From: a virus
Strand: one strand, 5' to 3'
DNA length: 64,000 nucleotides
Virus record (IMG/VR): IMGVR_UViG_3300035698_006513
Below, one piece after another: positions 7,462-45,431 of the stretch. The notes under the pieces are model-generated. The model saw nothing but the letters and a program-made list of their open reading frames with translations, was not told where the DNA came from and did no database searches. The stretch's first letter is position 1. Every line of letters begins with the position of its first letter. Both the position numbers and the translations under genes were made by a program.

Positions 7462-8409
7462 ATGTACCAGCCGTACAGTAATTATCCCATCCACGAAGAC
7501 CTGCAAATAATTTATACGGAAGATGCGTATAAAACAGCAGTCGCCTACGCCAACTTGTATAACAACTTGGAGTTTATGTTAGTGCCAGTGTGTGGACTCA
7601 TACTTCGTAAAGACGTGTCACCCCTACGAGAGCTGGAGCTATCCGACGTGGAGGCCATCGTTGTACATAAGTACATCCACCCACCACATCAAATAAACAC
7701 AGGAGCGCACACTGGCATAATTCAAAGCAAGCGTCAGGAAGTATCCGACCTGATCACAGAAGAGATAACGCGCCTCCGAGATGAATACCCACGCCTGGGT
7801 AACTTCATTAAGTTCCACGCACATCCGTTTACAGGTGGCAGATTCCTCTCTGGTGGAGACATCAATGCCAACTTAGTGGGTGAAAACCTCCAACGTTGGC
7901 GAAGTGAGACTGGAATAAGTTTTGTACCCATGCAGGTGATCTGGCCACTGGAGGGGATTAGCATGGGAAGAAACACGGACATCCGCGGTGGCGGCAATGA
8001 CAGTACATGGAATATCACAACATTCCTGCACATAGACAACCGCCTACATGTGACACCGCGTCCATCTATCCTTCGAGATAACCCCAAACACAACAGTATT
8101 TACAAACCCCCATTCTGGATGGACCACGAGGGTTGGTGTGTGAAACAGCGGGACAGTCTGAGAAACCGCTGGCCCGAAGCATCGTATAGATTCCTAGGTA
8201 GAGGTTGGGTGCAGTTCTTCGCACCGGGCAAACCTTACGGGATAATAGTGACCTTGGGACCGGACTTTCCTAACCAACCCGCAGAAATATTCATCGTACC
8301 ACCGCAGACATCCGTCGCACAATTCATGAGAGAAAAGACGTTTGCCGTTGAAGACCTGGATACATATGACTTGATGTGGGACTTTGACTCTGTAATGAGA
8401 GGTGGGTGA
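7462..8409 (+). CDS. JAB/MPN+ metallo-isopeptidase with C-terminal E2/UBC-like domain
   Basis: Upstream Glu (NLEF) plus HAHP-FTGGRFL-SGGD (HxH-x8-S-x2-D) at 7816-7860; IIVTLGPDFPNQPAEIFI resembles the UBC/RWD YPxxxP motif; ends in RGG. Confidence 0.7.
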   Translation: MYQPYSNYPIHEDLQIIYTEDAYKTAVAYANLYNNLEFMLVPVCGLILRKDVSPLRELELSDVEAIVVHKYIHPPHQINTGAHTGIIQSKRQEVSDLITEEITRLRDEYPRLGNFIKFHAHPFTGGRFLSGGDINANLVGENLQRWRSETGISFVPMQVIWPLEGISMGRNTDIRGGGNDSTWNITTFLHIDNRLHVTPRPSILRDNPKHNSIYKPPFWMDHEGWCVKQRDSLRNRWPEASYRFLGRGWVQFFAPGKPYGIIVTLGPDFPNQPAEIFIVPPQTSVAQFMREKTFAVEDLDTYDLMWDFDSVMRGG

Positions 8410-8413
8410 AACT

Positions 8414-8626
8414 ATGGACAACATGGAAGATGTAGTGAGGAGCTGGTGTCGGACATCTCCCAGTGAGTTTGACCTAGACACATTGCAAGTAGAGAAGAAG
8501 AAAATAAAAGTAGGATTGAGGAAGCCTCTATCGAGGGAGAAAAAAACACTCATTGAGGCGGCAACAAAGAACGCGGGCGCACGCTGTAGAATCACTACGT
8601 TTGTAGTGGAAGTGTACTTACGTTAA
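8414..8626 (+). CDS. Small basic hypothetical protein
   Basis: Follows the JAB gene; GAGGTG SD upstream of ATG 8414. Confidence 0.55.
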   Translation: MDNMEDVVRSWCRTSPSEFDLDTLQVEKKKIKVGLRKPLSREKKTLIEAATKNAGARCRITTFVVEVYLR

Positions 8627-9159
8627 ACATCCATGTTTTGGAGAGATTCATCGATAAGTTTGACGGTCTCCTGCATATAGGCAGTGCCGCCAGAAAAAGG
8701 TCCCTCTTTTATAATGCATGACATGCAGAAGGGGGACACTTTTTTAGCCATATCTGGACTGATGTCGATAGCGAATGATTTATTACGAGGTCCGTAATAC
8801 TCTATCTTCATACCATTACTAGAGTACCTACTTTCGAGAACCTTGTAGATCTCTTCTGCAATTGCTTCGTCTGCGTGTACATTAAGGCAGCGCATAGCTT
8901 TGGTACGGCCCTTAAAAAACACGTTGATCACTGTGGGGTCGAGGTCTTGATGTACACCTGCTATAATATCTTTCCCTTCAAAACGAGCCCCCATCTCAGC
9001 GCCCCAATGAACCTCGTCCACACTACCTACGTTATCCTGTACGCTGGATTTTTCGTTGTCCGTAGTAGACATCAGAGGTGCGTCAACTTTAGTAGTCATC
9101 CACGCATCTGTCCTCTGCTGTAATCCATCATTGCTCAAACTCATCGGTCTCCAAGCCAT
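8623..9159 (-). CDS. Hypothetical protein
   Basis: 178-aa ORF coupled to the upstream minus-strand genes. Confidence 0.6.
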   Translation of the reverse strand: MAWRPMSLSNDGLQQRTDAWMTTKVDAPLMSTTDNEKSSVQDNVGSVDEVHWGAEMGARFEGKDIIAGVHQDLDPTVINVFFKGRTKAMRCLNVHADEAIAEEIYKVLESRYSSNGMKIEYYGPRNKSFAIDISPDMAKKVSPFCMSCIIKEGPFSGGTAYMQETVKLIDESLQNMDV

Positions 9160-10000
9160 CGTCTATTCCTATTGGTGAGTCCGGACCAGTTCCCAGATCC
9201 GTACGGTCCTGTATTGCCCGTGATTCAGTTGTTCGCAGAGGCTCTCGTTTTTCTAAGAACCTCTTCAGCCTATCGATAGCAGTGTTCATACTCTCACTAC
9301 CCACGGTCTTTGAATTCTTCCACATCCGCGTCAGCGTATTAGCCAACGCTACGATGCGTTTATCTGTATTATCATTGAATGGTTGACTTGACAGCATAGC
9401 TATACGCATACCAAGTTGCGCCATCGCAAGAGTGTGGTACTCATCCGCAGACTGAGTACTACCTAAGCCCAGTCGATTAAGTACTGCATCCCTGCCTCCA
9501 ACCAACGCCTCTATGTAAAAACCGTTACCCTTAGATTTGTGTAGGAAACTGAGCATCTCAGCCCCAGACAACAAATTTGGATTCCAAAAATAATGTTTGT
9601 ATAGCCGGATGTCCCTAACTGTAGCGGACTCAAACTCCACCTCCTTACGGAGGATGTTAGCAATATCGTGTTGGGACATCCCACCTAGCAGCATCTTCTC
9701 TATACTCTCCCGTTGGCGTGGGTACATCAGTATCTTTTCTGCAATACCCAGTTCTGCCCTACGACGAAAGTATAAGTGGATACCTTGCGTACGCAGCCAC
9801 TCCTCTGTTGTATCCGAAATGTCTTGACGAAAGTCCTCCACCGTAAAGTCCCCTAACATCCTGCGTGCAGCTAAGTACACACGGGCGTCAGGAACCATAA
9901 TCCTACGGTAAAACAATTCGTCTGTCACCTGCGTATCCGTGTTTCCTTCGCAGATTAGACACTTTATAAAATACAGAGAGGGGTGGCTGGACGCTTGCAT
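9128..10000 (-). CDS. Hypothetical helical/HTH-containing protein
   Basis: 290-aa ORF abutting 10001; GGMSQHDIANIL HTH-like segment. Confidence 0.6.
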   Translation of the reverse strand: MQASSHPSLYFIKCLICEGNTDTQVTDELFYRRIMVPDARVYLAARRMLGDFTVEDFRQDISDTTEEWLRTQGIHLYFRRRAELGIAEKILMYPRQRESIEKMLLGGMSQHDIANILRKEVEFESATVRDIRLYKHYFWNPNLLSGAEMLSFLHKSKGNGFYIEALVGGRDAVLNRLGLGSTQSADEYHTLAMAQLGMRIAMLSSQPFNDNTDKRIVALANTLTRMWKNSKTVGSESMNTAIDRLKRFLEKREPLRTTESRAIQDRTDLGTGPDSPIGIDDGLETDEFEQ

Positions 10001-12091
10001 TTACTTATCCTGCAGGTTGAAAGGAAGCATGTCCAGAGCTTCAGTAATTTGGTCGAAGTCGTCAATACAACGCTCAACCACTAGTTCTGGAATACCGGGC
10101 ATACCAATACGAGTATAGAGAAGTAATGAACACAGTGTAGACAGTGACTTCTCTAACATAGGCTTCTCGCGAATAAACGTAGAAGCAGTCTGTTGATTTA
10201 CCAGACCAAGGGACAAGATACTGTCCACCGTTTCTTGTTTAGGTAAGACTGGTGCAGCGAGTTTGAAGTGTTGATAGAACATCTCACGTGCACCAAGAAC
10301 AGCAGCAGGTCTACCCTGCATATCAGAGGAGAACTTGCACAAGTGCGCAGCCTCATTAACAAGGAACTTAGGCTTGAGTGTATCAAGTGCTTGAATGTCA
10401 GCAGCAATCTTATCTATCTGTGCTGTTTTTTCTGCTGTTGTGCGTGTGATGTGTAACCTTCCAGGAACTAGTACATCTTCGCCTTGGAACCTTGACGCCT
10501 TCTTTATTATGTCCTTTGCGTCTCGTACATCCGTACCACAACTGACCAATAAGAAATGTGCAGCTTGTTTATTCAAGCCGTGCGTTTCTAATTCGTGGAG
10601 CGCCTCGACAGGGGGGCCGTCGATGTTAAACAAGCCGTTGTGACAGGCTATACTTACTGTACTAGAGTCTTGGTAAATAGCTGCTTGCGCTGTCTTCATG
10701 ATCTCACCTGGCATCAGGAGCTCAACAGTAGAGCCCATAGGTAAGAACTCGATGACTTGGGGAATACCAAACATAGCCTCGCCCAGAGGAACGACTCTCA
10801 GAATTTCAGGGGTGGGTTGCAGTGTGATAGGGGTACCAGTCATAGCGTCCACACAAGAGTACATAGCTGATCCGTCAGGAAGAGCCCCTGTACCCTGTAT
10901 TTGTACTGGGCCGTACGCTTGGATGTCCCCATCATTACGTGTGAGGAAAAATCCTAAGTCTTTGGGCGTAGTTGTGGTTGGGGGGAGATGCCCTGAGCCT
11001 TGCTTAATACCTGCAATCTGAGGCTGCAACGTTCCCGCTGTACCATTAGCAAACACAACAGCATCTCGAGGCTGCCCATCGAAACCTAACGTATTTGGTG
11101 TAGCCCATCCAGTTATTTTATCCCCTTCGGGTGTAAACACTAGGTATTCCCCCGTACTAGCTATAGGGGAAGATGGGTCTTGTTTGGGGAGGGTTGGGAT
11201 ATGCACAGGTGCCTGTGTAGGCATAGTGTGAAATCCATACTCTTCCATATCAGCAGCAGCCTCTGGCGGCATAACTTCTTGTGCTGCTTCCGCAGGAATT
11301 TCTTCTGCTATTTTATGGAAATGTTCCCGGTTAGCGTGTATTACGCGTACACGATTAGAGCCCATTTTCTCGAACTGCATAACTGTGGGTACGTGCGTGC
11401 GATTTGTATCGTTTACGCTAGGGGGAATGCGTGTGCTTACACAAGATGCGAGTTTCTCAACCGCTTCAGGACACACTGCTTTGACGAACACGAATACATT
11501 CTGCTGTGCTACTTTCTCTTGTAGCTCCGCAACTTGCTGCATGTTGCCTGCTGCTGCGCTATCGTCTAACGCACTACCTAACAAGCTGGCAGTCTTAGTT
11601 CCAGGGTAAGCACCGTAAAAAGATCTACCTGGAGGTATCAAGTCAGAAAAGTATGATGTGTCTGTGGTGAGTTGTGTGTTGTCGGGGCTGACACTGGCTA
11701 CAGTGGGATCCAACATCTTACGCTCCATGCGTTTCTGTGACGCAGGAAAGTACAGATCTCCATCGGTGGCCAGATCCAGTGGGGCCAGTTGTAACCCGCG
11801 AATAACAAATGGAAGATAGAAAAGAGGAGTGTCCGTCTCTTCCGTAACCATATCTATATGCGCTACTGGTTTACGTACTACAACTCTACCTGAACCGACG
11901 CCAGTTTCTGGGGAAGACTTTATGATTTCAGCGCGAACATCGTACCCAGACAGGAAAGGGAACGCACGAAAAGTTTCTGCTACAATTTCCCCTACCCATT
12001 TAGGTTCATCTTCTGATAGTACAGTAGGTACGCCTGCCTCTTTACTTAGATACTCAACGGGAGGAGGGGTAATATATAGACTCTCTTTCAT
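10001..12091 (-). CDS. Large virion/head-associated protein rich in K-x-A motifs
   Basis: 696 aa; SKEAG, TKTAS, EKVAQ, EKLAS, HKIAE, MKTAQ, NKQAA, EKTAQ, DKIAA, FKLAA; AGGAG RBS. Confidence 0.7.
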   Translation of the reverse strand: MKESLYITPPPVEYLSKEAGVPTVLSEDEPKWVGEIVAETFRAFPFLSGYDVRAEIIKSSPETGVGSGRVVVRKPVAHIDMVTEETDTPLFYLPFVIRGLQLAPLDLATDGDLYFPASQKRMERKMLDPTVASVSPDNTQLTTDTSYFSDLIPPGRSFYGAYPGTKTASLLGSALDDSAAAGNMQQVAELQEKVAQQNVFVFVKAVCPEAVEKLASCVSTRIPPSVNDTNRTHVPTVMQFEKMGSNRVRVIHANREHFHKIAEEIPAEAAQEVMPPEAAADMEEYGFHTMPTQAPVHIPTLPKQDPSSPIASTGEYLVFTPEGDKITGWATPNTLGFDGQPRDAVVFANGTAGTLQPQIAGIKQGSGHLPPTTTTPKDLGFFLTRNDGDIQAYGPVQIQGTGALPDGSAMYSCVDAMTGTPITLQPTPEILRVVPLGEAMFGIPQVIEFLPMGSTVELLMPGEIMKTAQAAIYQDSSTVSIACHNGLFNIDGPPVEALHELETHGLNKQAAHFLLVSCGTDVRDAKDIIKKASRFQGEDVLVPGRLHITRTTAEKTAQIDKIAADIQALDTLKPKFLVNEAAHLCKFSSDMQGRPAAVLGAREMFYQHFKLAAPVLPKQETVDSILSLGLVNQQTASTFIREKPMLEKSLSTLCSLLLYTRIGMPGIPELVVERCIDDFDQITEALDMLPFNLQDK

Positions 12092-12103
12092 AATAGTCGT
12101 CTC

Positions 12104-13883: not shown

Positions 13884-13897
13884 AACTAACCTCGTGT

Positions 13898-16800
13898 TTA
13901 GTACGCCCAGGGTTTATCTGGTGTGCCTTTACCAAATTCCTTACCCCATACCAGTGCAGGTATTGGATGGCTGCCGTGTATATCAGATTCCCACCCTTGG
14001 AGGGCAGCGTCTGTAAACGTGGACTTTAACTTCTCATAGTTTGCGCGAGCTAAGAAATCTTCTGTCTGTACCAAAGGTAGCACATTCACCCCTTTCAGTA
14101 CAGGAACTGATTTTATGTCTGCTCGCTGCTCTTTATTTAACTTGTTGATGGTAGGTGTAGTCAGGTAATCACCATGTGTGACTCCAGACGCATTACCAGG
14201 ATCAACTACTTCGGCCAAATCCGTCAGTGATTTAACGACCACTTCGACGTTCTTTCTATTGTAGGGATTTGTCCTAAATAACTGGCTGAGCTCGTCAGTC
14301 AAGTACGCTCTTACTTTTTTGATACCATTCTTGGGACCGTGTGCCTGCATCAGCTCCCGCGGATTAACGAACCCCGGAGACAGTGACTGACCCCTCTTCA
14401 CAATATCCCCGTCTTTCACTGTGGGACGGAATTGTGTCTTGTGGTCCTTACCATCTACTGTCACCAAAAATCCTCCAGTGGGAGATTTTCTGACATTGGA
14501 TACCTTACCACTGCGCATACCTAATGTTGTAGCATTAGGTAGCGTGGAGGGGAATGTTGTCAGCTGTGTTGCGCGTTCAAACTGCGACACAGACTTTGCA
14601 CCTCCGCCCTTGGCCACACCACCTTCGTGGAATGCATTCATGGATCCCTGAGACAAGGGCTCACCTATAGCTTGGCCTGCAATGACCCCTATATTCACAC
14701 CAGGATTGTGTAGCTTGCCTTCTTCGTTAAGACCGAAACACTTCGAGCATATACCATCATTGTGTTCGCACTTTAGCGGACTACGTACAACAATAGAGTT
14801 TATGTGGTCTTTGCCTTTGGTAAGTGATTTCTGTAGATCTTTGTCTACCAGAGTTCCTGCTTCGTACACATGCCCGTCCGCGGATACTGATTTGCCTAAG
14901 TATCTACCTATCGTATGCGGATCATTTGCTTTCATAAGCAGACCCTCAGTTGTACCGCAGTCATTCGCGCCTATGATCTGATGCATTGTGGTGTTGATAA
15001 TTTTCTTAGACATAGCTCCCGGATCGGAAGTACCTGTGGCTCTCTGCACAATACCCTTACGCGCACCATGTTGAGTTTCCCAATGAGAACCAAAGTCCAA
15101 CCCCTCTGCATATGAGCGTGTCACGGGATTTTCTCTTGTACGAGAAAGACCATCCTGCACTAACATAGGGGCACCTAACATTTGACGCATCTGCGCTACG
15201 GATCCACGTGCACCAGACGCATTCATATGATAAATGGCGTTGTCCGTGTCTTTAAATTTGTTATTCATTGCGTCTAGTAGTGAATCAGTAGCATCATTGT
15301 ACACACCTATAACGCGTTCCCGTTTCTCGTCTTTACTGATACCTTTCTTTGCGCGGATAGCTGCAGCTTTTTTGTGTGCGGCCTTTAACAAAGGGTCTCT
15401 AACATCTGCTGCGGAACTAAGGTCCTTGATTGATATAGTACGACCGGTTCTATACGCAACATGGTTTCCTTGTTTCAACATACTCTGCACCGTTCGAGGA
15501 TACTCTTTGGGGAACTCGCGTGCAACTTTGTGTAACATTCCTCGCATACGAGACTTGTTGATAACGTACTCTGGGTTAGTGAGGTGTTCACCTCCCCGCA
15601 TACTTTCGGGTAACATGTCATCAATAAGTAAACGTCCTGCAGTAGTACGCATATCGCCTACCCCCACAACGTCATCCATATTTATCTTACCTGCAGATAA
15701 CGCCTGCTGTGCAGCATCTCTGTTTTTGTAGCTCTTATTCGTTTTCTTCCCCCACTTACTCATATGGTACAGACCCCACACGGCCTCTTGCGAAGGTTTG
15801 TGTGCAGGTTCTCCGTGAGTAGTGTTGAACAATTTCTTACTAGGTAACATGTTCTTGGCTTCTTCTATACCACCGGGAGATACGGGTACGAATGCAGCCA
15901 TCTGGTCACCATCGAAGTCAGCGTTAAAACCTTCACACGATAGTGGGTGAAGCCGGATAGCATCCCCGTCTACTAGTACAGGTTTATATGCCATTACACT
16001 AAATGCGTGCAACGCGGGGTCGCGTTTCAGTAGAACAGGATGAAATTCTTCCTGCCCCATACCGTTTTTGCGGCGCATCACATGTTCTAACGCTTTGTAC
16101 GCTTGTGGGTCACCTGAGTCTATCATGTCTTGTGCTTTACGGGCCAAGCCACGGCGCTTCAATTCCGCCTTAACCAACGGAGTAAACATCTTGAGCGCAG
16201 ACTTCTTTGGTAATCCTACCTCATCCATGTCTAGATCAGCACCTACCGTGATTGTGGTACGCATGGATAAATCTTGGCGTTTAGAGACTAACTTGTCCTG
16301 GAAGAATCCCTCTTTAGGTTTCTTGCCTGCAATCAACTCTAAGATACCTAATGTGTCTTCATTCTCTCTGGGGATGATAGATCTGTCTTCTTTATACGGT
16401 CGACTCTCGCCTCCGAACAGTTTCCACACTTGGCCTAACAGCGACCTACGTAATTTGGTCTTCTCGGTAAGAGGCATAAGCGGGTGGAACGTTTTCAATT
16501 GGTGATTAGTCAACCCTACGTATTTGTACAGGCCATTGAGAGAAGACCGGAAAGGACTGTTGTCGTCTGTAGCTAATACCGGTCTGAACTTCGGAGGCAT
16601 GACAGGAATACGTTTCAGCATGTACGACGTAGCTGGTAGTTTTTCGTTATCCAGCGCACGTAGATACTTGACCTTGTTTATCAAGGGACCTCTGGCACTA
16701 GCCGAAGCATTTTCTAACGCACCTTTGGCACTAGCTAACTCACCCTTCACATCAAGGTTATTCAACATGCTGTACAGAGCAGCGCCGCCAGTAGTAGCAC

Positions 16801-19800
16801 CTTCTGTTTCGGGGGCCACTAACTTACCGTCCTTCATCCCCTTTTCGCCCACAGATAAATCGATAAGCTCTTTGCGTTTGAGGCCAGTAAGCGCCACAGC
16901 ACCCTTAAAAAATAAGGGGTTTATCACAGGCTCAGATAACGTCATGTGCGACCACTTGGACCCATTCAATCCGCCAGTTAGGTGCCTATCAAACAATCCC
17001 CCGACCTCTTCTTTGTCACCAAATAATTGAAGCCAAGGTTTACGCAGTTCCCCTGCGGATAGTTTTTCTATCTGACTATCCATGAACGGGAGCATCTTGA
17101 GTTTATGCCCACGCTTTTCTAAATTCAGACCTACGCCTCGTAGGTACGCTTTGAATTTATCTACTGCGAATGACTGTTGGGGTGGGGGAATGGGCATCCC
17201 TCCTTCGATAGCTTCCCACAAACTGTCATTGCGGTTGGACGTGTATGTAGCCTTTTCCTTTATTAGATCACGTGCTCCGTGGGCTAGTAGTGCGTATAGA
17301 CCATACTGATCCATCTTCTGTGCACCAGTCTTTCCACCGCGTTTGGGAGCTTCATTTATATCGTATGCTCCGCGACCACGTACCGCTTGTTTCTTTTCAA
17401 TTTGTTGGTGTAGCTTCAGTATGTACTGAGGACCTATCCCTATCTGACCCAGACTCGTACCGTCTTTATCAAATAGCTCTTCTGTAGGAACGCCATTATG
17501 CTTATCTAGTTCTGCAGCTAAGTCCTTAGACCTATCAGAAAACCCGTGGTAATGATCCGCAACATATGGCTTGCCTGTTTTCTCTGCTATCTTACCGGCA
17601 GCAAGTTCTGACACTTGCCCCAGATTCATACGGGTTGGTACGGTAGTTGGGTTCATGAGTACTTTGACTGCGCGTCCGTCTTTTGTGTGAGGCATGTCCT
17701 CATCAGGCTTTACCTTAACTACAATACCTTTATTTCCGTGACGTCCAGATAACTTGTCCCCTTCGCGCATAGGTTCTTCTGTACGCACGTACGCAGTAAC
17801 ATATTTACCTTTACGTACAACGTCTACCACTTTTCCTGTGGCGTCCTTGTCCCAAATTTCAGACTTATCATCCATTGGGCGGAACAGGACTTTCTTCATC
17901 TTTTGTAGGGAACCTGAAGTAGTATTAGATGTGGACTTGCGTAATACAGACATGATGGTATCACCAGGTGTAAGTTCCTGCCCAACTTTTATTACCCCCG
18001 TATCATCTAACTTATCTTGTTGTCCATGAGTCATAGCGTCTTTATAATAGCGGAGGAAGTCCCTCTTATTAAGAGTTGTGTCTTTGCTGATCTCTGTAGT
18101 GAATCTGTACAGGTGTGGAGATGTCATTTCATCCGCAGCACTCTGTGAGATAACTACTCCATCCTCAAAGTTCTCCCCACCAGAGGGCATAAACGCAGTC
18201 AGCATATTACGTCCCATAGCAAGCACACCATCTTTTGTGTAGTTGGTGTCTGCTAAGGTTTGCCCTGACTTAACTTTATCACCCACTTTGACTAAAGGTT
18301 CTGCGTGCATAAACACACCGACCTTAGCATCGTTTAGGGGGTAGTTATTATAGATGGGTACAACAGTATCCTTACCCTTTTTACCACTTATAGTAATGTT
18401 ATCTTTAGTGATTCTGGTAATGGTACCAGCTGTCGGTGATGTGTGTGACGCAAACTCACCGTACACTTCTTCTACAGATTTACCGTTACCTGCGTTGGAC
18501 TGTACTAAGGGGGCCTGCCTCCTGACCATAGGTATAGCTTGACCCATTTGTCTACCGGACATCATAATACGCGCACCATGATTCTGGTTCACAAATGGTA
18601 CAGCAGATGAGATAGGTCCCATAAGTGCCGGAGCAGATGGTAATATGTAGTCTACGCTTTTAAGACTAACCTGCTGACGTTCACCACCAACATCAGCCCA
18701 CACCGTTTTATTACTACTGGTAGGCTTACCGTCTTTCCACTTGAACTGATCAGGGTATGCAATTTTATTATTGTCATGAAGTTTGATGGGGTCTATCAAA
18801 CTCATACTCTTCTTCTTAGCGTCCCATATCGGGGTAAGAAGTTTGTTGTCTTGTTTTACCACTCCCATAGGAAGATGCTGAACTACACCTGTTCTCTTGC
18901 TCTCTGGGGTATGCGTAGGATCCAAGAATCCTAGGTGCGTTTTATCTATAAGTGTGTTTTCTGGTATGATTTGGTCTTCTGATGTGATACCACCAGATCC
19001 CATCAGAGTAGTCTGTCTTTGATCAGATAACATACTGAGTGGGTTTATTTGACTACCTAGAAGAGTACGTGTGTCTTGTGTGAAGAAAGATTTGACAGGG
19101 AGATTAAACGTCCCCGGAGACATTATCTGCCTAACGTCCGTCTTCTTATCTAAGTTATTCTTAACTCTGCGCATGATTTCGCGACGAGAGTTCTTTATCT
19201 TCTCAGGTATATGGTCTTCTACACTCCACACTTCCTTGAAACCCAAGTCCTCAAGATTATCTACTACGTCTTCATCTCTGGCAACACGGTACAACTTAGC
19301 TGCAGCTGTAGTAAGAAGGTCACCACTGACGGAGGTAAATGCCTTACCTAATGTCTTTTTTGTAGTGTCGCCATAAAGTTCCGTGGTAGCGAAACTTGCC
19401 TTAATACCTTGTATAGCCTCTTCCATGTTTTCCGGCTTCTTGCGATTAAGGGCTTCGTACATCTTATAGATTTCGTTAGCGCCTTTATCCTTCTTCCCCT
19501 TACCGCTAGTAATTGCAGAGCGGTTGATGGCTAGTGTGTCTGCTCCCCACTGGGAAGATATATCATCGTCCGACATACCCATCGCCCGAAGTACGGGGTA
19601 CAGATGTATGTTCTTTTTACTGCCACCACCTGTAGGATAGCTCAACATCATATGACCATTGTCATGCATGTCTAGACTAAACCCTACACCTTGACGCAGA
19701 TTGAACTGACTAGTGAGTTTCCCATTCTGTCTACGTTTAGCGTAAACGCCTGACTTTAACCTGAACTGATTTTGTACGTACCTACCCTGTCCGCGTACAA

Positions 19801-20104
19801 TGTATGTGTACTCTCTGGTTATCTTAGGTAAGCGAAGAAGGTTCATGCGACTCTTCGAGAGTACATCACCCGATTTATTATCTACCAACTCCAAGTCACC
19901 TACTAATGGCGCACCCCAAGTTTGGTTATTTTGTCTAGCCTTTTTTTGGCTAGTGACATCGTTAGACGATAAATTATCGTTGAACACCGCGGAGTTCAAG
20001 TTTATCGTGTGCTGATTCCCAACAATGGGAAAATAATCCTCTACGGATTTCTGTACACGCTCTTTTGTTAAGTCGAACTGATGCTCTGGAGAGAGATTCG
20101 CCAT
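13898..20104 (-). CDS. rpoBC: Fused beta-beta' multisubunit-type DNA-directed RNA polymerase (~2068 aa)
   Basis: Beta motifs: NPLS..., DPTHTPES, NFEDG, GDKLSGRHGNKG, PTRMNLGQ, GAQKMDQY. Beta' motifs: PVMPPKFRP, KRQDLSMR, RDPALH, catalytic NADFDGD (15905-15925), SGARGS, GEPLSQGSMNAFHEGG. AAGGAGG RBS favours a start at 20104. Confidence 0.97.
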   Translation of the reverse strand: MANLSPEHQFDLTKERVQKSVEDYFPIVGNQHTINLNSAVFNDNLSSNDVTSQKKARQNNQTWGAPLVGDLELVDNKSGDVLSKSRMNLLRLPKITREYTYIVRGQGRYVQNQFRLKSGVYAKRRQNGKLTSQFNLRQGVGFSLDMHDNGHMMLSYPTGGGSKKNIHLYPVLRAMGMSDDDISSQWGADTLAINRSAITSGKGKKDKGANEIYKMYEALNRKKPENMEEAIQGIKASFATTELYGDTTKKTLGKAFTSVSGDLLTTAAAKLYRVARDEDVVDNLEDLGFKEVWSVEDHIPEKIKNSRREIMRRVKNNLDKKTDVRQIMSPGTFNLPVKSFFTQDTRTLLGSQINPLSMLSDQRQTTLMGSGGITSEDQIIPENTLIDKTHLGFLDPTHTPESKRTGVVQHLPMGVVKQDNKLLTPIWDAKKKSMSLIDPIKLHDNNKIAYPDQFKWKDGKPTSSNKTVWADVGGERQQVSLKSVDYILPSAPALMGPISSAVPFVNQNHGARIMMSGRQMGQAIPMVRRQAPLVQSNAGNGKSVEEVYGEFASHTSPTAGTITRITKDNITISGKKGKDTVVPIYNNYPLNDAKVGVFMHAEPLVKVGDKVKSGQTLADTNYTKDGVLAMGRNMLTAFMPSGGENFEDGVVISQSAADEMTSPHLYRFTTEISKDTTLNKRDFLRYYKDAMTHGQQDKLDDTGVIKVGQELTPGDTIMSVLRKSTSNTTSGSLQKMKKVLFRPMDDKSEIWDKDATGKVVDVVRKGKYVTAYVRTEEPMREGDKLSGRHGNKGIVVKVKPDEDMPHTKDGRAVKVLMNPTTVPTRMNLGQVSELAAGKIAEKTGKPYVADHYHGFSDRSKDLAAELDKHNGVPTEELFDKDGTSLGQIGIGPQYILKLHQQIEKKQAVRGRGAYDINEAPKRGGKTGAQKMDQYGLYALLAHGARDLIKEKATYTSNRNDSLWEAIEGGMPIPPPQQSFAVDKFKAYLRGVGLNLEKRGHKLKMLPFMDSQIEKLSAGELRKPWLQLFGDKEEVGGLFDRHLTGGLNGSKWSHMTLSEPVINPLFFKGAVALTGLKRKELIDLSVGEKGMKDGKLVAPETEGATTGGAALYSMLNNLDVKGELASAKGALENASASARGPLINKVKYLRALDNEKLPATSYMLKRIPVMPPKFRPVLATDDNSPFRSSLNGLYKYVGLTNHQLKTFHPLMPLTEKTKLRRSLLGQVWKLFGGESRPYKEDRSIIPRENEDTLGILELIAGKKPKEGFFQDKLVSKRQDLSMRTTITVGADLDMDEVGLPKKSALKMFTPLVKAELKRRGLARKAQDMIDSGDPQAYKALEHVMRRKNGMGQEEFHPVLLKRDPALHAFSVMAYKPVLVDGDAIRLHPLSCEGFNADFDGDQMAAFVPVSPGGIEEAKNMLPSKKLFNTTHGEPAHKPSQEAVWGLYHMSKWGKKTNKSYKNRDAAQQALSAGKINMDDVVGVGDMRTTAGRLLIDDMLPESMRGGEHLTNPEYVINKSRMRGMLHKVAREFPKEYPRTVQSMLKQGNHVAYRTGRTISIKDLSSAADVRDPLLKAAHKKAAAIRAKKGISKDEKRERVIGVYNDATDSLLDAMNNKFKDTDNAIYHMNASGARGSVAQMRQMLGAPMLVQDGLSRTRENPVTRSYAEGLDFGSHWETQHGARKGIVQRATGTSDPGAMSKKIINTTMHQIIGANDCGTTEGLLMKANDPHTIGRYLGKSVSADGHVYEAGTLVDKDLQKSLTKGKDHINSIVVRSPLKCEHNDGICSKCFGLNEEGKLHNPGVNIGVIAGQAIGEPLSQGSMNAFHEGGVAKGGGAKSVSQFERATQLTTFPSTLPNATTLGMRSGKVSNVRKSPTGGFLVTVDGKDHKTQFRPTVKDGDIVKRGQSLSPGFVNPRELMQAHGPKNGIKKVRAYLTDELSQLFRTNPYNRKNVEVVVKSLTDLAEVVDPGNASGVTHGDYLTTPTINKLNKEQRADIKSVPVLKGVNVLPLVQTEDFLARANYEKLKSTFTDAALQGWESDIHGSHPIPALVWGKEFGKGTPDKPWAY

Positions 20105-20132
20105 ATTATAATCCTCCTTACAATGCACTCAT

Positions 20133-20160
20133 ATTATCAACATAACGTACGTGCAGTCAA
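20133..20160 (-). promoter_or_regulatory. sigma70-like promoter for the RNAP gene
   Basis: TTGACT-16 nt-GATAAT on the minus strand, upstream of the RBS. Confidence 0.45.
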
Positions 20161-20181
20161 CGCAGTAGGTGTAATTACTTC

Positions 20182-20195: not shown

Positions 20196-20237
20196 AGAGC
20201 CGTCCCCACCTTTAACTTTAGAGTAGGAGTATACACT

Positions 20238-20381: not shown

Positions 20382-20500
20382 TGTGGATGCTGTTCTTAGT
20401 CTCATTCGCATTTGGTTTTTCGTCTTCAGTAAGCGGCGCATTAACAATGGAAGCGATAAAAATCGCACAAGAGGAGGAAGGATACGATGGGGATGGATAA
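20381..20500 (+). CDS. 39-aa hydrophobic peptide
   Basis: TAATG stop/start overlap; MWMLFLVSFAFGFSSSV... Confidence 0.45.
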   Translation: MWMLFLVSFAFGFSSSVSGALTMEAIKIAQEEEGYDGDG

Positions 20501-20963
20501 CTATTGTCCCTTCTGTGAAAACAAATTGTACGAAGGTGACGAGATAATAATAGTCACCGCAGGATCGATGTCTTGGGGCGACAAGTCCCGACTTCTGTAC
20601 TGTGACCCGTACGAAAGATTCGGACGTAAACCTGCAGAGTTAATACTCCACATGGAGTGTTTCGAGGACGGACCCCAAAGAGATGAGACAGAGTTACTCG
20701 CGGTGGTTCTGTCTGAACATGCACTGATGTGGCCACAGTGCTGTTTGTGTGAAGAACCTTTGGCAGCGGGGGATGAAGTGTATATGTTTCAAGAAGGAGC
20801 GCTTGAACGTATGGAAGTACACATTCAGGAAATAGCCCGCGTAAATGAGTTCTGTGCAGTGAGAGCTGCATATTCTCATACTGGGTGTGTAGGTAAATCC
20901 GCTAAAGTATGGCTACCCAAGGATAATGGAGTATACCAGGAGGAGATGAAAGGTATATTTTAA
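20487..20963 (+). CDS. Protein with two CxxC...HxxC zinc-finger repeats
   Basis: CPFCENKLYEGDEI...HMEC and CCLCEEPLAAGDEV...HTGC; GAGGAGG upstream. Confidence 0.65.
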   Translation: MGMDNYCPFCENKLYEGDEIIIVTAGSMSWGDKSRLLYCDPYERFGRKPAELILHMECFEDGPQRDETELLAVVLSEHALMWPQCCLCEEPLAAGDEVYMFQEGALERMEVHIQEIARVNEFCAVRAAYSHTGCVGKSAKVWLPKDNGVYQEEMKGIF

Positions 20964-35055: not shown

Positions 35056-35059
35056 TCCC

Positions 35060-37858
35060 ATGAGGCTACTCCCTCAATACGAAATTGTACAAACAGAGGG
35101 AGAGGCTCAGAGGTTATTATCTCGCATAATGCTGCAACCCGAGGTCTCTGTTGATACAGAGACTGAGGGAGATAAGAAGGCAGACCGCTTAAATCGTTGG
35201 AAATCAACGGTTAATTGTTGGTCTGTCTCCTTTAAAGATGTAGCCTGTGCAGGTGGAGCAAATCGTATAGCAATACCTTATGATTTGCTTTTTATGTTTG
35301 AGCCCTTCTTTCAAGCAGAACACATAGACAAGATCTTCCATAATGCGCCGTTCGACTTGTGTATGCTGCATAATTCAGGAATACGTAATGTTAAAGGTAG
35401 GATCATCTGCACAGCAGCATTAGATGCTGTCATAGATGAGAACCGTTTTGGGGCACATGGGCTTAAGGAATGTTCGTGGGACTACTTGCAACTCATCATG
35501 CGTACCTTTGAGGACACGTTTGGTAAAATACCCCTTAACGAGTTTACAATAGTAGAGAAAGCGGATTACGCAACAGAAGATGCATGGGCTACACTGCTAC
35601 TATATTGGAAACTTCGGGATCTTGCTGAGGGTGAAGAGTTAGGTGAGCAGCATGGAGAGACGTATTCCCTTTGGAATATGTACGAAGACCACATCATACC
35701 ATTCAATCGCACTATTACTAATATGTGCATCCGCGGGTGGAGACTAGATAGAGAATACCTATCTAGACTGGGACCTGCAATCCAAAATGACATAGAGCAG
35801 ATAGACTTTGTGTTTAATAGGTATGCAGCCATACACGCCGCACATCAAGGTATCGCGTTACACGAATTAGAGTGGGAACGTGGCGTTAAACACAAAAGAA
35901 TGCGTCCCGTATTCCCAGACGGAATAATAAATCCCGGATCTAATAAACAACTCGCGTATTTCTTTGTGGAAGTTCTAGGTCTTCCTATCATCAAGATGAC
36001 TGAAGGGGGGCAGTCAGGTGTACCAGACATCTCTATGGATGACTCTGTGCTCAAAGAGTATGTCAAATCACATGACTGCAACTTCGCGTCATTAGTACTG
36101 CAACGTAGAAGCCTAAACAAAAGTCTAGGCACATATGTACGTGGTCTCCAGAAATGGATGGATACGCGAAACAAGATACATGCGTCATTAAGAGTTATGG
36201 GTGCGCGTACAGGTAGACTATCCTGCTCTGATCCCAACCTTCAAAATATACCTAGGCCGGACGGGGATATATACGGTCTACGATCTGCATTTATTGCAGA
36301 TCGAGGACACGTACTCATCGTTGCTGACTACTCTACACTAGAGATGCGTATTGCTGCATCTATGTCTAAATGCCCTGACCTCATTGAGGCAATTAACTCG
36401 GGCTTAGACCTACACTGCCAAACAGCAGCGAATATGTTTGGTATACCTTACGACGACCTCTACTACGCCAAGGAAAATATCCATAACATGGAACTTAGCC
36501 TAGCAGAGCGACTCACACTGGCTCCTTTAGTAGCACAGCGTGGTGCAGCTAAAGCTATTGGATTCGGTTTGACCGGAACTGATTCATTTGGTATTGTGTC
36601 TCTATAAGGAGACAACTATGAAAACTATACAAGTTACTTGTGAGCACTGTGGAGTACATTTTACATATGAGCGTGTACGTATCGACGGAGGTAGGTACCG
36701 GAAGACATGCGACGTGTGTAGAAAAGATAACCGCCGTATAAAACAGCGATCTGCGGATATGAAATTCCGTGAAAATAGAGGTCATGTTGTTGGGTGCGGT
36801 TCTGGTGGTAATCAGTGGGGTGATCACAACCATTCATGGAAGGGTGGTTGTGTACGAGTATGGAGACAGCTGTGTTTCGAGGCACACGGAGCTGTATGTG
36901 CACATTGTGGGTTCACACCACAATCACGTGAAACATGGCACCTACTCGTAGCTCACCATATTAACGAAGACCGTACTGATAATAGAACGGAAAACTTGCG
37001 CGCAGTGTGCAAGAAATGCCATCAGAATATTGAACATCTACAGGTGCGCAATACCAAAGGTCAGTATGATGGCCGAAATAAAACTGCGGAATAAAGCGGG
37101 GACGTCCTAAAAGCAGGATAACCCGAACCGAAGACTAGGAGTAATATTCTAGTCAGGGGCAACGACTAGGTGACGAAACTATCTTAGATAGAATGTAATT
37201 CACCCACGAGGCCGCGGCACCGAGATACTTAGGTATGGTGGTGAAAAGATAGTCTGGACTGTGCATATAGCTTAATAAGAAAGCACAGAAGTATTGGATA
37301 AAGAGCCAGTACGGTAACAAAGCGATTCTATACGGTAGAGGCCCTAGGTCTCTTGCAGAAATACTAGGTCTACAGGAAAAGCATGGGATTAGCGAAAGAG
37401 CTGCTATCCGCATGGCGCAAGACCTAATCAACCAATTTTACGCTGTGTACCCGAGACTACATGCGTATACACAAGAAGTGCTCTGGCAATGTCAGAGAGA
37501 TGAATACGTCCAGACCTGGCTACTTCGTAAACGCAGACTCATATCAATCAACTCTGAAGATGATGCAGCACGGTCTCAGGCAGAAAGACAAACTCTAAAC
37601 TCCATCATTCAAGGTACAGCTTCAGATGTAGCTATGGTGGCGATGAATATGGTCGAGTACGATCCTGTAATGAATGAGATCGGTGCCTCATTGCTGATGC
37701 AAATACACGATGAGCTAATCATACAAGTGCCAGAGCAGCATAGAGTCGTAGCAGAGGCGAGATTGCGATTCCTAATGGAGGAGCCATTTGTTGGGCATTT
37801 CGCAGTAGCATTATCCGTTACTAGCGATAGCGCACTCACATGGGCAGATGCAAAATGA
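35060..37858 (+). CDS. polA: Family A DNA polymerase with 3'-5' exonuclease, in two exons: join(35060..36568,37325..37858)
   Basis: ExoI VDTETE, FHNAPFD, YATEDA, TGRLSCSDPNLQNIP, motif A DYSTLEMR, motif B KAIGFG|ILYG restored by splicing, motif C QIHDEL. Confidence 0.92.
36569..37324 (+). ncRNA. Group I self-splicing intron in polA motif B
   Basis: Exon ends in U and intron ends in G; P3 ctgcgg(37084)/ccgcgg(37212); P7 gacta(37164)/tagtc(37250); R-like gcaacgactag and S-like aagatagtct. Confidence 0.88.
36618..37094 (+). CDS. Intron-encoded HNH homing endonuclease
   Basis: AAGGAG RBS; CAHCG...HHINEDRTDNRTENLRAVCKKCH; N-terminal CxxC pairs. Confidence 0.9.
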   Translation: MKTIQVTCEHCGVHFTYERVRIDGGRYRKTCDVCRKDNRRIKQRSADMKFRENRGHVVGCGSGGNQWGDHNHSWKGGCVRVWRQLCFEAHGAVCAHCGFTPQSRETWHLLVAHHINEDRTDNRTENLRAVCKKCHQNIEHLQVRNTKGQYDGRNKTAE

Positions 37859-42146: not shown

Positions 42147-43408
42147 TGGAGTTCACTAATGCAGCGCAATTTCAAGACGTACTGGACGGAATGCCCCGAA
42201 ACCAGGACGGGAGCATCATCAGAGGGTCGGCCCACACGTATATAGTTGGCTTGTGTGGTCGTGCGCCAAAGCGCACGAAGGTCCGAAAATTGGCTATAGC
42301 CTGTGGTATGCCTGGTGCAGACGCAGTGTCAATTCAGGACCACGGACAAATAGCCACATTCATACTAGACAAACTTTTGTCTAGTGAGCCCATTGTAGCC
42401 GCGCCCGCTCCACCCCCACCTCCAGCAGAAGTCCCTCATGAAGAACGACTTCGACTCATTCAACATGTACGTGGTTACGAGCGTACCTTCGTAATAGAAC
42501 GTAAACCCGAAGCATGGTGGGCGTCTGCTACTATTGACGCACTCAATTTGTACAAAGTGGAGATCGAGCAGAACGTAGCTGCAGGCGATACTAACACCTC
42601 CGGATCCGAGGAAGAAGTTAGCGAAATGGTAGTAGCACCTACTCCTACGATGGATACAACACAACCTCAACCTCAGCCAATAATTCCAAACACTCCTATG
42701 CACACTCCTATGCACACTCCTGTATACACAGGTGAGCGTGTAACTACTCCCACCAAACGTGACGAGTGGGATGGTATCATTGCAGACTTGATTGGGGACG
42801 GTGTCTCTCCCACGGTCGCATCCCCCACAGGATTCACATGCCCTCAGTTCTTGTGTGACAAAGACCAAGCCCTCGCATGGAAGCTTTGGGTGATTTCTTG
42901 TATGGACCCCACTCAAACCAAAAAAGTCATGGGGGCACGAGACTTAGTTCAGTTGCTAGGTAGAACCGGATTAGAGTGTGATGGAGTGAATGCTCGTAGC
43001 ACTAAGCCTGTGCTACTAAATCTTCTCCAGACTTACCTACTCGAAAATTCCGCAGGTATATTGGAGTTGGCAGAGACACCTGAGCCCTGTCTGCCTGAAA
43101 ATTCACCTACAGAAGTAATCGAGGAATATTCGCCAATCGAATCCGCATCATCTCATGCAGGTGCTTACGAAGAGCGTAGCGGCACACAGCGGTCAAGTGA
43201 AAACATCGACCCCAACCTCATCACTGGTGAAGAAGCGAGACAGATTCTGTTGAACCAGCAGCAAGTATTCACCAACCAGCTAAAATTATGGGAAAATGTG
43301 TCTAGTATAGATGCCGTATTAGCAGAAATGGCTGTTGGTATGCTGCGCGTGCGCACCGACGAGGAGCCCTTGACATGTGCGTCGATCCTCAAGGCTATGA
43401 AGCAGTAG
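42146..43408 (+). CDS. Hypothetical Pro-rich multidomain protein
   Basis: AAGGAG RBS; 420 aa. Confidence 0.65.
   Translation: MEFTNAAQFQDVLDGMPRNQDGSIIRGSAHTYIVGLCGRAPKRTKVRKLAIACGMPGADAVSIQDHGQIATFILDKLLSSEPIVAAPAPPPPPAEVPHEERLRLIQHVRGYERTFVIERKPEAWWASATIDALNLYKVEIEQNVAAGDTNTSGSEEEVSEMVVAPTPTMDTTQPQPQPIIPNTPMHTPMHTPVYTGERVTTPTKRDEWDGIIADLIGDGVSPTVASPTGFTCPQFLCDKDQALAWKLWVISCMDPTQTKKVMGARDLVQLLGRTGLECDGVNARSTKPVLLNLLQTYLLENSAGILELAETPEPCLPENSPTEVIEEYSPIESASSHAGAYEERSGTQRSSENIDPNLITGEEARQILLNQQQVFTNQLKLWENVSSIDAVLAEMAVGMLRVRTDEEPLTCASILKAMKQ
42690..42721 (+). repeat. 12-bp coding tandem repeat (ACACTCCTATGC x ~2.7; TPMH)
   Basis: Seen directly in the sequence. Confidence 0.75.
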
Positions 43409-43557
43409 AGTTCTTCCCTGAAGTATGCACCCTAGAAGATCTACAGGAGATTGCCATCGAGCTTCTAGGGTGTGACCCCCTATTTCTATTCGCAATGAAT
43501 CGGGATACGCTGTTAGAGCTCTTAGAGCAAAACGCATATTATCCTGACCCCCAGTAG
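43375..43557 (+). CDS. Small acidic hypothetical protein
   Basis: GAGGAG RBS; last ORF before the terminator. Confidence 0.55.
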   Translation: MCVDPQGYEAVEFFPEVCTLEDLQEIAIELLGCDPLFLFAMNRDTLLELLEQNAYYPDPQ

Positions 43558-43560
43558 ACT

Positions 43561-43593
43561 CCCCCTTACGCCGTGTGTGTAAGGGGGTTTTTT
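43561..43593 (+). terminator. Rho-independent terminator ending the replication operon
   Basis: cccccttac / gtaaggggg stem followed by T6. Confidence 0.85.
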
Positions 43594-43613
43594 GTTTGTA
43601 GTAAGGAGATATA

Positions 43614-45431
43614 ATGAGTACCGACCTTAGAGAACGCATCCTCCCCGTAGTGGGAGACAATTTCATCAATAAGAACATCACATTCTTTAATGTAGACATC
43701 ACAGGAAAACTGGCAGATGCAGCATACCGATGCGGCAGCAATCTAACTCTCATGTATGATGAGGCACCAAATGTAAGTAGACATCAGCACACTTACCCTG
43801 ATTATACGGCTGCTGCCGCGTGGATGGAGCGTATCAGTGACCATATGCAAGATAATGCCCCTGACCAGTACATGTGTTTAACCCCCTTCGGCATTACGGA
43901 TAAGTCTTACGAGACTGAGCTGATAGTCGCAGCTGGAAATCCTGCCACCGTCTACGTAGCCCTACATGAAGCCAACAAACTGGGGTGTGGTGCTATTGTA
44001 GGAGTGATGACGGAATCTCACGTCGTGGTGTTTTATCGCAACCCTGACGACCCCAAAGTAAAAGAATACACTCAGACTTTTCTTGATGCGTTGGAGAAGA
44101 CCGACTGTATCCAGCCAGGGGCAAAAAACCTTCGTGTGATGGAGTTGCAAGATGCTTTGGGGTGGTTCATTAAAGCACACATGCTTCGCAACGACGAAGA
44201 GCACAGACCGGAGTGGTTGCATAATCAGCTGAACACCAAAAGAAATCTGCTGATACGAGGTGATGCTACTACTCCATACGCAACCTGGATGAACGAAGTA
44301 ACTTATTGCCGTGACTACGGCAGCGTCAAAAGCTATACCCCACCACTGAAAGACCTAAAGGACAAAGAAGTGTGGGTCATTGGTGCTGGTACAGGGTCTC
44401 TGTTCATCCAAGAAGGAATAAAATTCTTCCGGAAATGGACCGTGATTGATTGCAAACCATTCTCCAAATATAATCCTGTGCGACAAGCTGTCGGGTTCGA
44501 GCATGTAGATAAGGAGGTAAAATCCCACCAGATTATGAAACTCATGCGTGACCGCATCAAGAGTTACACTCACGACACCTCCGAGTGGAGTGAGTGGGAG
44601 TCTGCAGACAAAACCGTGCGCAGATACACATCGACACGGAGTACCGCAGACGAAAGCGGAATCTCTGCCTACGTGCGCGGAGTAATTGCGGAACCCACTT
44701 CACAGCTGGACATGAAACACTTGCTTGATAGATTCGGGGAGCCTGATGTAGTTGTGTTAGCCACTGGAGCAACACAGGGTACCAACCAGATGCTCGCAGA
44801 AGAGCTACGCAGACGAGGAATACCTCATGTAGTGCCTTCGGCACTTCCAGGTGCTCTGTACCATAAGCAGATATTCTGCCTTCCTGAACAAGGTACCCCA
44901 TGCATTTCCTGTCTTCAGGGAACGATGGGTATCGACCGAGTAGGACCAGACCTCCCCAGAGAGGCACGAGAACTGTTCTACGGTGGGTCACAACCTGCGA
45001 CACTGTTTGAGACTTACCCATCCGCCCATGCGCTCCTCAGAGTCACGATAGAAATCCTAACCACACACCACCTACGCTCTCCGTGGTTCAGAGAGCTGGT
45101 AAACAATGAGCACACCTGTCTCTTATGGGGTAATGTGGTCCAAACCAAAGATGGCAAACCTCTGTATGACATAGAGACTTTAGGAGAGTTGGTTGCGTAC
45201 TCTCCTGCGCACATGATTGGGTGGCCAGCCTGTGATACGTGCGGTAGATTGAATGGTGCAGCGAGTGCACAGCCGTGTATGCATTGTGGTGTAGCAGGAA
45301 GAGCTAAAGGTAGTGAATTCTGCTCACCTGGACATGCGACCTTGTACCAAGTCAACATGGCGCGAGCTAAAAAGGAGAGAGAGGCGGCTGTGCAGGAGTC
45401 TATTGAGCCATCGGGACTTATTACCTTATAA
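43614..45431 (+). CDS. ThiF/MoeB/E1-family adenylating enzyme with unknown N-terminal domain and C-terminal Zn finger
   Basis: VWVIGAGTGS Rossmann motif, VIDCK..SKYNPVRQ...K, DVVVLATG, PCISC and CDTC Zn pair; AAGGAG RBS. Confidence 0.8.
   Translation: MSTDLRERILPVVGDNFINKNITFFNVDITGKLADAAYRCGSNLTLMYDEAPNVSRHQHTYPDYTAAAAWMERISDHMQDNAPDQYMCLTPFGITDKSYETELIVAAGNPATVYVALHEANKLGCGAIVGVMTESHVVVFYRNPDDPKVKEYTQTFLDALEKTDCIQPGAKNLRVMELQDALGWFIKAHMLRNDEEHRPEWLHNQLNTKRNLLIRGDATTPYATWMNEVTYCRDYGSVKSYTPPLKDLKDKEVWVIGAGTGSLFIQEGIKFFRKWTVIDCKPFSKYNPVRQAVGFEHVDKEVKSHQIMKLMRDRIKSYTHDTSEWSEWESADKTVRRYTSTRSTADESGISAYVRGVIAEPTSQLDMKHLLDRFGEPDVVVLATGATQGTNQMLAEELRRRGIPHVVPSALPGALYHKQIFCLPEQGTPCISCLQGTMGIDRVGPDLPREARELFYGGSQPATLFETYPSAHALLRVTIEILTTHHLRSPWFRELVNNEHTCLLWGNVVQTKDGKPLYDIETLGELVAYSPAHMIGWPACDTCGRLNGAASAQPCMHCGVAGRAKGSEFCSPGHATLYQVNMARAKKEREAAVQESIEPSGLITL

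Follow-up and report, generated by a model that had tools for sequence, protein, structure and literature searches.

Does a phage that carries both a JAB-type peptidase and an E1-like activating enzyme operate a protein-tagging machine, or do the two genes serve separate ends? The question is raised by a stretch of 64,000 nucleotides from the IMG/VR virus record IMGVR_UViG_3300035698_006513 (hereafter the window, meaning the whole stretch at its full length), which is part of a large phage and encodes head and tail-fibre-like genes. An earlier note on this DNA had proposed a dispersed ubiquitin-pathway-like toolkit of three genes, which encode a JAB peptidase fused to an E2-like domain, a ThiF/E1-like enzyme and a double zinc-finger protein, and had called their functional coupling hypothetical. 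All three open reading frames (ORFs) are present on the plus strand, and their products are referred to as P0001, P0002 and P0003:

7462-8409, plus strand: JAB-UEV gene, product P0001, 315 amino acids (aa); characterised by family alignment, AlphaFold2 (AF2) model, Foldseek, VIA and Atlas structure rows
43614-45431, plus strand: BilD-like E1 gene, product P0002, 605 aa; characterised by alignments, profile search against PDB, AF2 model, Foldseek and VIA
20487-20963, plus strand: double zinc-finger gene, product P0003, with two CxxC-based units

None of the three products had a match in a tblastn search of 50,697 GenBank phages, no relative of any of them was found in IMG/VR scans, and single-sequence searches of PDB gave nothing useful. 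The data below lead us to a reading to which we give a probability of ca. 50%: the JAB-UEV and E1 proteins form the conserved enzymatic core of a single Bil-type machine for tagging with a ubiquitin-like (Ubl) modifier. Their genes would have been inherited as a pair, be kept apart at fixed positions with individual expression and probably serve the phage's own programme.

Pairing of the JAB-UEV and E1 genes

Outside phages, a JAB-UEV homologue occurs immediately upstream of an E1 homologue in 11 loci out of 11. These correspond to two JGI metagenome contigs, five contigs of Myxococcota metagenome-assembled genomes (MAGs), three archaea-binned contigs and one genome (L002, L005, L008-L012, L014, L016, L017 and G016), and one more contig, available without its DNA, displays identical gene sizes and order. 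The two genes were also found as natural fusions, with JAB-UEV followed either by the whole tandem E1 (P0077; hhalign 4e-53) or by its active domain only (P0056; hhalign 9e-33). When 201 genomes were sampled from the Myxococcota-labelled phylum of G005, both genes were detected in the same 2 and neither in the other 199. Finally, maximum-likelihood trees of the two families are congruent, each resolving three groups that correspond to phages, "archaeon" MAGs and Myxococcota, and the phage clade is monophyletic in both, with a support of 100/99-100. Because their homologues are adjacent or fused in rare bacterial and archaeal operons that resemble Ubl-like tagging systems, the JAB-UEV and E1 enzymes very probably act together as a working pair. 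The coupling has thus gained solid ground since it was first suggested, and the description of the genes as unlinked holds for this phage but not for the homologues, which are tightly linked elsewhere.

In phages, the location of each gene is also conserved. The JAB gene lies between the terminase gene and convergent virion genes in five phage relatives, whose JAB proteins share 42-50% identity, and in the window it follows the corresponding ORF:

5591-7387, minus strand: large terminase gene

The E1 gene is located at the end of the replication module, a position that is the same in two relatives (L001 and L003). Such locations indicate that the two genes are core rather than sporadic components of these phages. 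The phage relatives (e.g. L001, L003, L006, L022 and L023) are short contigs; no JAB homologue was found in the MAG that contains the phage fragment L007, of which only a 7.6-kb piece was binned there.

Architecture of the two enzymes

P0001 is composed of a JAMM/MPN+ metalloprotease domain (residues 1 to ca. 205) and of a domain of the UBC superfamily that is devoid of cysteine and UEV/RWD-like (residues 217-315). The protein itself has no match in Pfam, PHROG, PADLOC or NCBIfam, yet a profile search of 1.84 billion representatives recovered 83 JAB-UEV clusters, nearly all of them ca. 300 aa long and with the identical two-domain layout. In an alignment of 68 sequences the only invariant columns are E37, H119, H121, S130 and D133, which constitute the JAMM catalytic set and occur in P0001 with the spacing HxHx8SxxD. 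The absence of a Pfam JAB or Prok-JAB match above threshold for P0001 is explained by the divergence of the family from the model, Prok-JAB being matched by only 3 of the 68 relatives with a best E value of 4.8e-4. The AF2 model of P0001 (pLDDT 90.7, pTM 0.89) retrieved CSN5 and Rpn11 with Foldseek at E 1.6e-7 over residues 9 to ca. 210, with a TMt of up to 0.74 for a Caldiarchaeum Rpn11 homologue, and structural comparison with VIA gave Z scores of 14.0 for Rpn11, 12.8 for PfJAMM1, 12.1 for Cap3, 11.2 for BilC and 8.6 for BubCD (9ea5_A). Alignment and model together confirm the N-terminal part as a predicted JAMM/MPN+ metalloprotease with intact catalytic residues, as had been proposed from the sequence.

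For the C-terminal domain, VIA returned moderate Z scores (7.3 for the Tsg101 and Vps23 UEV domains, 6.9 for Ubc9 and 6.2-6.7 for RWD domains), and ESM Atlas structure rows pointed to E2-CBASS, Prok-E2_E and UQ_con with a TM of 0.54-0.59. Across the 68 sequences no conserved Cys, Ser, His or other nucleophile was found in this domain, which stops shortly after strand 4; besides the JAMM set, only W183, G248, W249 and P270 are near-invariant in the alignment. Residues 217-315 are therefore predicted to adopt an inactive, UEV/RWD-like E2 fold. The E2-like assignment is retained as far as the fold is concerned but not as that of a working E2, since there is no conserved Cys and the best matches are inactive UEV and RWD domains. 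The Arg-Gly-Gly that ends P0001 was considered as a ubiquitin-like terminus and discarded, as even close relatives do not share it. The same profile search recovered a protein of 2559 aa (P0039) in which 26 separate stretches match profile positions 244-300 of 302, i.e. the last ca. 57; by sequence, this suggests a repeat array of a C-terminal JAB-UEV sub-motif.

In P0002, an inactive adenylation domain (residues 1 to ca. 240) precedes an active one (residues ca. 245-546), and the protein ends with an extra CxxC...C...H finger and a helix (residues 550-605) that are specific to the phage clade. Library scans of P0002 returned chance-level rows only (DUF6716, E 0.13; NF002018, E 0.088), and neither Pfam PF00899 nor any PADLOC or NCBIfam model was matched. 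Its relative P0005 passes PF00899 with 33.5 bits (cut-off 28.1), and precomputed PF00899 assignments exist for 4 of 9 relatives. The E1 alignment comprises 15 sequences, including these 9 relatives and 5 more from genome contigs, and a second profile search brought no further members. Against PDB, the best hit of the resulting profile was ATG7 (1.7e-7) through the GxGT...NPVRQ...K region, while the N-terminal part of the profile (residues 19-173) matched the E1 domain of Cap2 at 1e-3. With the AF2 model of P0002 (pLDDT 78), Foldseek retrieved the full-length canonical E1s UBA7, UBA1 and UBA6 together with the bacterial structure 8tyz_A. The latter, BilD, is also the best VIA match, with Z 23.6 and a root-mean-square deviation of 3.2 Å over 379 residues, spanning model residues 1-546; other VIA scores were 21.3 for MoeB, 21.2 for UBA1, 20.0 for MccB, 19.4 for BubCD (9ea5_A) and 18.2 for PaaA. 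Alignments to the single-domain E1s (MoeB, UBA5, MccB, BubCD and Cap2) start only at residue ca. 168 or 241 of P0002. Because BilD and UBA1 match over the full length and single-domain E1s only over the downstream part, P0002 is taken to be a tandem of inactive and active adenylation domains, an architecture reported for BilD and eukaryotic E1s (10.1101/2023.09.26.559546). In structure, the model groups with protein-conjugating E1s (BilD, UBA1 and UBA7) and not with ThiF, MoeB or TcdA, and the ThiF/E1-like assignment stands in this more precise form. The earlier note had stated that absence of co-occurrence, failure to recover an E2 fold or grouping of the ThiF-like protein with cofactor or tRNA-modifying enzymes would speak against its proposal; what was found is co-occurrence, a predicted E2 fold and a structural grouping with conjugating E1s.

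The Rossmann motifs of the active domain are invariant in the 15 sequences (G257, G259 and T260 of GxGT, D279, N287, R290 and Q291 of NxxRQ, and K303), as are N391, a zinc site formed by C430, C433, C540 and C543, and a crossover loop that reads F455-Y456-G-G-S/T-Q-P-A-T463 followed by E466-T467-x-P-S470. No Cys other than the four zinc ligands is invariant in this alignment, C502 being replaced by S or V in two members. The crossover loop lies in a helical insertion (residues 430-500) located after the first CxxC, and its portion around Y456 has a pLDDT below 50 in the model, as expected of a mobile catalytic loop. The Bub E1 also lacks a catalytic Cys, and there an invariant crossover-loop Tyr forms an oxyester (10.1101/2024.11.21.623953); by analogy, Y456 may be the oxyester residue of P0002. 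The two positions that precede N391 (389/390, compare the Mg-binding Asp of DxxDN) are D-D in most cellular members, G-T in P0002 and S-D or M-L in the other phage members. Every residue that is invariant in its family is retained in the phage JAB-UEV and E1 proteins.

Cellular counterparts and possible roles of the pair

In cellular genomes, the two genes belong to a cassette (L008:4170-14050 and L017:1237-10572, as well as L009, L011, L012, L002 and L005) in which a small Cys protein, a zinc-ribbon protein, JAB-UEV, the tandem E1 and a ClpB-like ATPase are encoded in this order. The small protein, of 120-170 aa, contains a CxCC motif and ends in an invariant VDLxxDxFY, without a conserved terminal Gly. 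The zinc-ribbon protein, of ca. 276 aa, displays the motif WPxxDPPVxV...PPDH...RLC with an invariant Cys and may be read as E2-like by motif only; PDB and hhalign searches gave no support for a relationship with the UEV-like domain or with solved E2s. The ATPase downstream of E1 is a ClpB-like double AAA+ protein, and on the archaeal-MAG contigs the small protein is preceded by genes for two SPFH proteins and for a protein that may reside in the membrane. Beyond the weak E1 matches, no Pfam, NCBIfam or PADLOC model covers the cassette.

Among known systems, the bacterial ISG15-like BilABCD of types I and II (PDB 8tyz and 8tyy; 10.1101/2023.09.26.559546) comes closest: BilD and BilC match P0002 and the JAB domain of P0001, respectively, with the scores given above, and the cassette order of small protein, second protein, JAB and E1 corresponds to the Bil order of Ubl, E2, deubiquitinase and E1. 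Several features set the family apart, however. BilD has a Cys (C417) in the mobile helical insertion of its crossover loop, whereas the E1 described here has the insertion without a conserved catalytic Cys. BilC has ca. 160 aa, whereas the P0001 JAB carries the additional Cys-less UEV-like domain, and Bil uses a beta-grasp Ubl with a C-terminal Gly, whereas the cassette small protein has its CxCC motif and VDLxxDxFY end. In addition, a ClpB-like ATPase is attached to the cellular cassette, and in the phage the genes are dispersed, with no E2 or Ubl found in the window.

The Bub system (6E/DUF6527; BubCD, PDB 9ea5; 10.1101/2024.11.21.623953) shares with our family a Cys-less E1 with an invariant crossover-loop Tyr and a JAB that precedes the E1, BubCD being a JAB-E1 fusion as are the relatives P0077 and P0056. 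The Bub E1 is a single-domain homodimer, whereas P0002 has the tandem layout of a pseudo-dimer; neither a DUF6527 serine protease nor a fusion of Ubl and E2 was seen here, and oxyester chemistry would have to be assumed. A JAB and E1 pair also occurs in type II CBASS as Cap3 and Cap2, and E1 relatives weakly match the PADLOC "E1-E2" (CBASS) models, down to 3.8e-7, as well as ThiF models. Cap2 is an E2-E1 fusion, whereas the N-terminal 240 residues of P0002 correspond to the inactive adenylation domain and not to an E2, and a Pfam scan of eight genes of the cassette region of L008, the one locus scanned for it, gave no CD-NTase family. In phage lambda, the tail assembly proteins K (JAB and NlpC/P60) and I (Ubl) (PMC1779556) likewise combine a JAB gene located by virion genes with an adjoining small protein; P0001 lacks NlpC/P60 and has no recognisable beta-grasp partner, and a cognate E1 exists here but not in lambda. 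Virus-encoded ThiF/E1-family proteins proposed to exploit Ubl systems have been reported for the Asgard-archaeal virus Nidhogg (10.1101/2021.07.29.454249). By their description, these are UBA5-like single E1 homologues for which no JAB partner was reported. An incomplete literature search found no description of the JAB-UEV/E1 family, of a phage JAB and E1 pair, or of a phage that counters a Bil-like system with a deconjugase and an E1.

A candidate partner of the pair is encoded next to the JAB gene:

8414-8626, plus strand: small gene predicted to be coupled to the JAB-UEV gene, 70 aa; GAGG Shine-Dalgarno sequence, homologous ORFs downstream of JAB in relatives

An alternative GTG start at 8402 would overlap the stop codon of the JAB gene. 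In every phage relative with this arrangement and with readable DNA, a gene of 70-96 aa lies directly 3' of JAB (L006:5008-5256, L022:3970-4260 and L023:1316-1549), and a 73-aa gene is called downstream of the JAB homologue P0014. W11, R13, P16, S17, F19, T23, L35, R36 and K37 are invariant in these products, their basic tail being variable. By sequence, the small gene is conserved and appears to be translationally coupled to the JAB-UEV gene. The statement that the toolkit genes abut convergent virion genes must be amended for the JAB gene, whose immediate neighbour is this conserved plus-strand gene. The 70-aa protein was rejected as a homologue of the cassette small protein (hhalign probability 0.15%) but is the first candidate for a partner or a tag of the JAB/E1 pair.

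If the two enzymes constitute a Bil-type machine, the active adenylation domain would bind ATP and adenylate a small tag, either a protein or a peptide, at its C-terminal carboxylate. As no Cys is conserved outside the E1 zinc site, the activated tag would either react straight away with an amine or first form an oxyester with Tyr456 (or a Ser/Thr) of the FYGG(S/T)QPAT loop, as in Bub E1s. The JAMM domain may then mature the tag precursor or remove the tag, the Cys-less UEV-like domain could provide a site at which the tag or the E1 docks, and the remaining components would be dispensable or encoded outside the window. The phage would use the pair in its own infection programme by tagging phage or host proteins, which is favoured by the fixed positions of the genes and by their deep, monophyletic conservation. 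We regard as rather unlikely the most far-reaching version of this scheme, in which these phages would run a minimal tagging system of their own that dispenses with a thioester cascade and has a core function in virion assembly or host takeover rather than an accessory one in defence or anti-defence, with the Cys-less E1 activating a tag that is not a beta-grasp protein, possibly the 70-aa product, by Tyr/Ser oxyester or aminolysis and with JAB-UEV maturing or erasing it.

Several observations weigh against the machine proposed here. In the window, 35 kb separate the JAB gene from the E1 gene, which belongs to another module, and strong Shine-Dalgarno sites are the only regulatory motif that the two share. 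BLAST and hidden Markov model searches of the 64 kb revealed no homologue of the cassette small protein, of the zinc-ribbon/E2-like protein, of the ClpB-like ATPase or of the SPFH proteins, and a scan for small Gly-terminated ORFs gave only spurious overlapping frames and no genuine gene; the earlier note had likewise recognised no beta-grasp Ubl in the window. Pfam, PDB and relatives searches with the 70-aa protein had no match, its fold is not recognisable and it has no conserved C-terminal Gly. Furthermore, P0002 shows no clear equivalent of the Asp that binds Mg in most E1s, and the co-occurrence count comes from cellular genomes, the phage relatives being short contigs.

The pair could also serve counter-defence, a possible but doubtful role in which the host would carry a Bil-like cassette, the phage JAB-UEV would strip the tag from phage proteins and the E1 would divert or exhaust the tag by unproductive activation or competition. 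Indeed, of the systems characterised so far, the closest ones (Bil, type II CBASS and, probably, Bub) act against phages, and a tail protein of a phage is tagged by Bil. The distribution of the cassette is sparse and scattered (2 of the 201 genomes above), which is common among defence genes, the window keeps only the activator and the eraser and not the E2-like protein, tag or unfoldase, and both genes stand alone at module borders, the E1 gene having its own upstream terminator. However, the phage clade is deep, monophyletic and only 23-31% identical to cellular members, which therefore argues against a recent capture mimicking a host enzyme, and the positions are kept across distant phage relatives, unlike those of typical, variable anti-defence genes. 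A deconjugase alone would suffice for such a role, so that the intact E1 is left unexplained, and PADLOC contains no model for the cassette. The pair might instead cooperate in a chemistry other than tagging, such as that of a sulfur carrier (CysO/Mec+/MoeZ type) or a C-terminal peptide modification (MccB/PaaA-like), for modification of phage nucleic acids or small molecules. Such a function would be compatible with an E1 that lacks a catalytic Cys, as do MoeB and MccB, with the absence of an E2 from the window, with the good match of MoeB, MccB and PaaA to the active domain, and with the location of the E1 gene at the end of a DNA replication and recombination module. It appears improbable given that, over its full length, the tandem arrangement finds a match only in BilD and in eukaryotic E1s, that the cellular relatives are accompanied by a ClpB-like unfoldase and by a zinc-ribbon protein whose invariant Cys and arrangement are E2-like by motif, that no Gly-Gly carrier is present in the window, and that no rhodanese, sulfurtransferase or biosynthetic gene occurs next to the JAB or the E1 gene, a scan of a few adjacent ORFs giving only RecA, zinc-ribbon and MerR matches.

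That the two genes are relics which no longer cooperate, put to separate uses or one of them decaying, would account for their distance of 35 kb in different modules, for the lack of other cassette members in the window and for the changes at the D389/D390 positions of the phage E1. We consider it very improbable, as both proteins are full length with all family-invariant residues, each has been kept by several phage relatives, with an identity of 28-50%, and the phage clades are congruent in both trees. At the opposite end stands the full three-part toolkit, with P0003 as an E3 or adaptor of the JAB/E1 system, which can hardly be entertained. The two CxxC units of P0003 are present as described, a weak Prok-RING_1 match exists (E 0.022, 15.1 bits for a cut-off of 29.1) and zf-FLZ falls just under its threshold (23.1 versus 23.4 bits), but the Atlas cluster closest to it is that of a small tandem zinc-binding protein ("CopZ-like") and RING rows reach a TM of only 0.30, so that the resemblance to RING is negligible. 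GenBank phages, IMG/VR and family libraries contain no homologue of P0003, for which no deep protein-database search was made, and no cellular cassette has a counterpart. A relationship with the zinc-ribbon protein of the cassette (hhalign probability 0.7%) or with the extra C-terminal finger of the E1 was also rejected, P0003 having no similarity to either. No link to the JAB/E1 pair being detectable, P0003 should be dropped from the toolkit.

Work on prokaryotic Ubl-like conjugation (Cap2/Cap3 of CBASS, Bil and Bub) has until now treated it as a means by which cells fight phages. In the present case, intact relatives of the activating and removing enzymes are a stable part of the gene content of a phage lineage. 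The family differs from the described systems in having a tandem E1 without catalytic Cys, a JAB fused to a predicted inactive E2 fold and, in its cellular versions, a ClpB-type unfoldase. If the phage itself uses the pair, this would represent virus-run protein tagging in the prokaryotic world. Under either the phage's own programme or counter-defence, the pair offers a compact two-protein entry to the biochemistry of Cys-less E1s.

Neighbouring genes and other features

The E1 gene is separated from the replication module by a putative terminator, and a sigma-70 promoter scan was not above chance:

43561-43587, plus strand: intrinsic-terminator-like hairpin, 11-bp stem and T run

A 60-aa ORF (43375-43557, plus strand) overlaps the end of a 420-aa gene in another frame and stops just before this hairpin. 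It encodes a helix-extended-helix (SAP/HeH-like) motif, LEDLQEIAIELLG...LLELLEQ, which is also found upstream of E1 in L003 and L001 and as internal repeats of the 420-aa protein; the ORF may represent a small gene in its own right or an extension that is reached by frameshifting. On the other side, a gene for a 79-aa double-zinc-ribbon protein (45426-45665, minus strand) converges on the end of the E1 gene and is conserved in L001 (11601-11834).

The replication block is encoded on the plus strand of the window and comprises helicases, a primase-like gene, PolA, RecA and a nuclease-like gene. The PolA-type polymerase, a single gene in L001 (2885-4897), corresponds in the window to two plus-strand ORFs (35060-36607 and 37412-37858) ca. 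800 bp apart, which suggests an intervening element or an intein- or intron-like insertion. Finally, a very long ORF lies among the virion genes:

13898-20128, minus strand: beta/beta'-like RNA polymerase, single chain, 2076 aa

Its product has the appearance of a fused, multisubunit-type RNA polymerase, with matches to several PHROG families that represent the beta and beta' subunits of phage enzymes.

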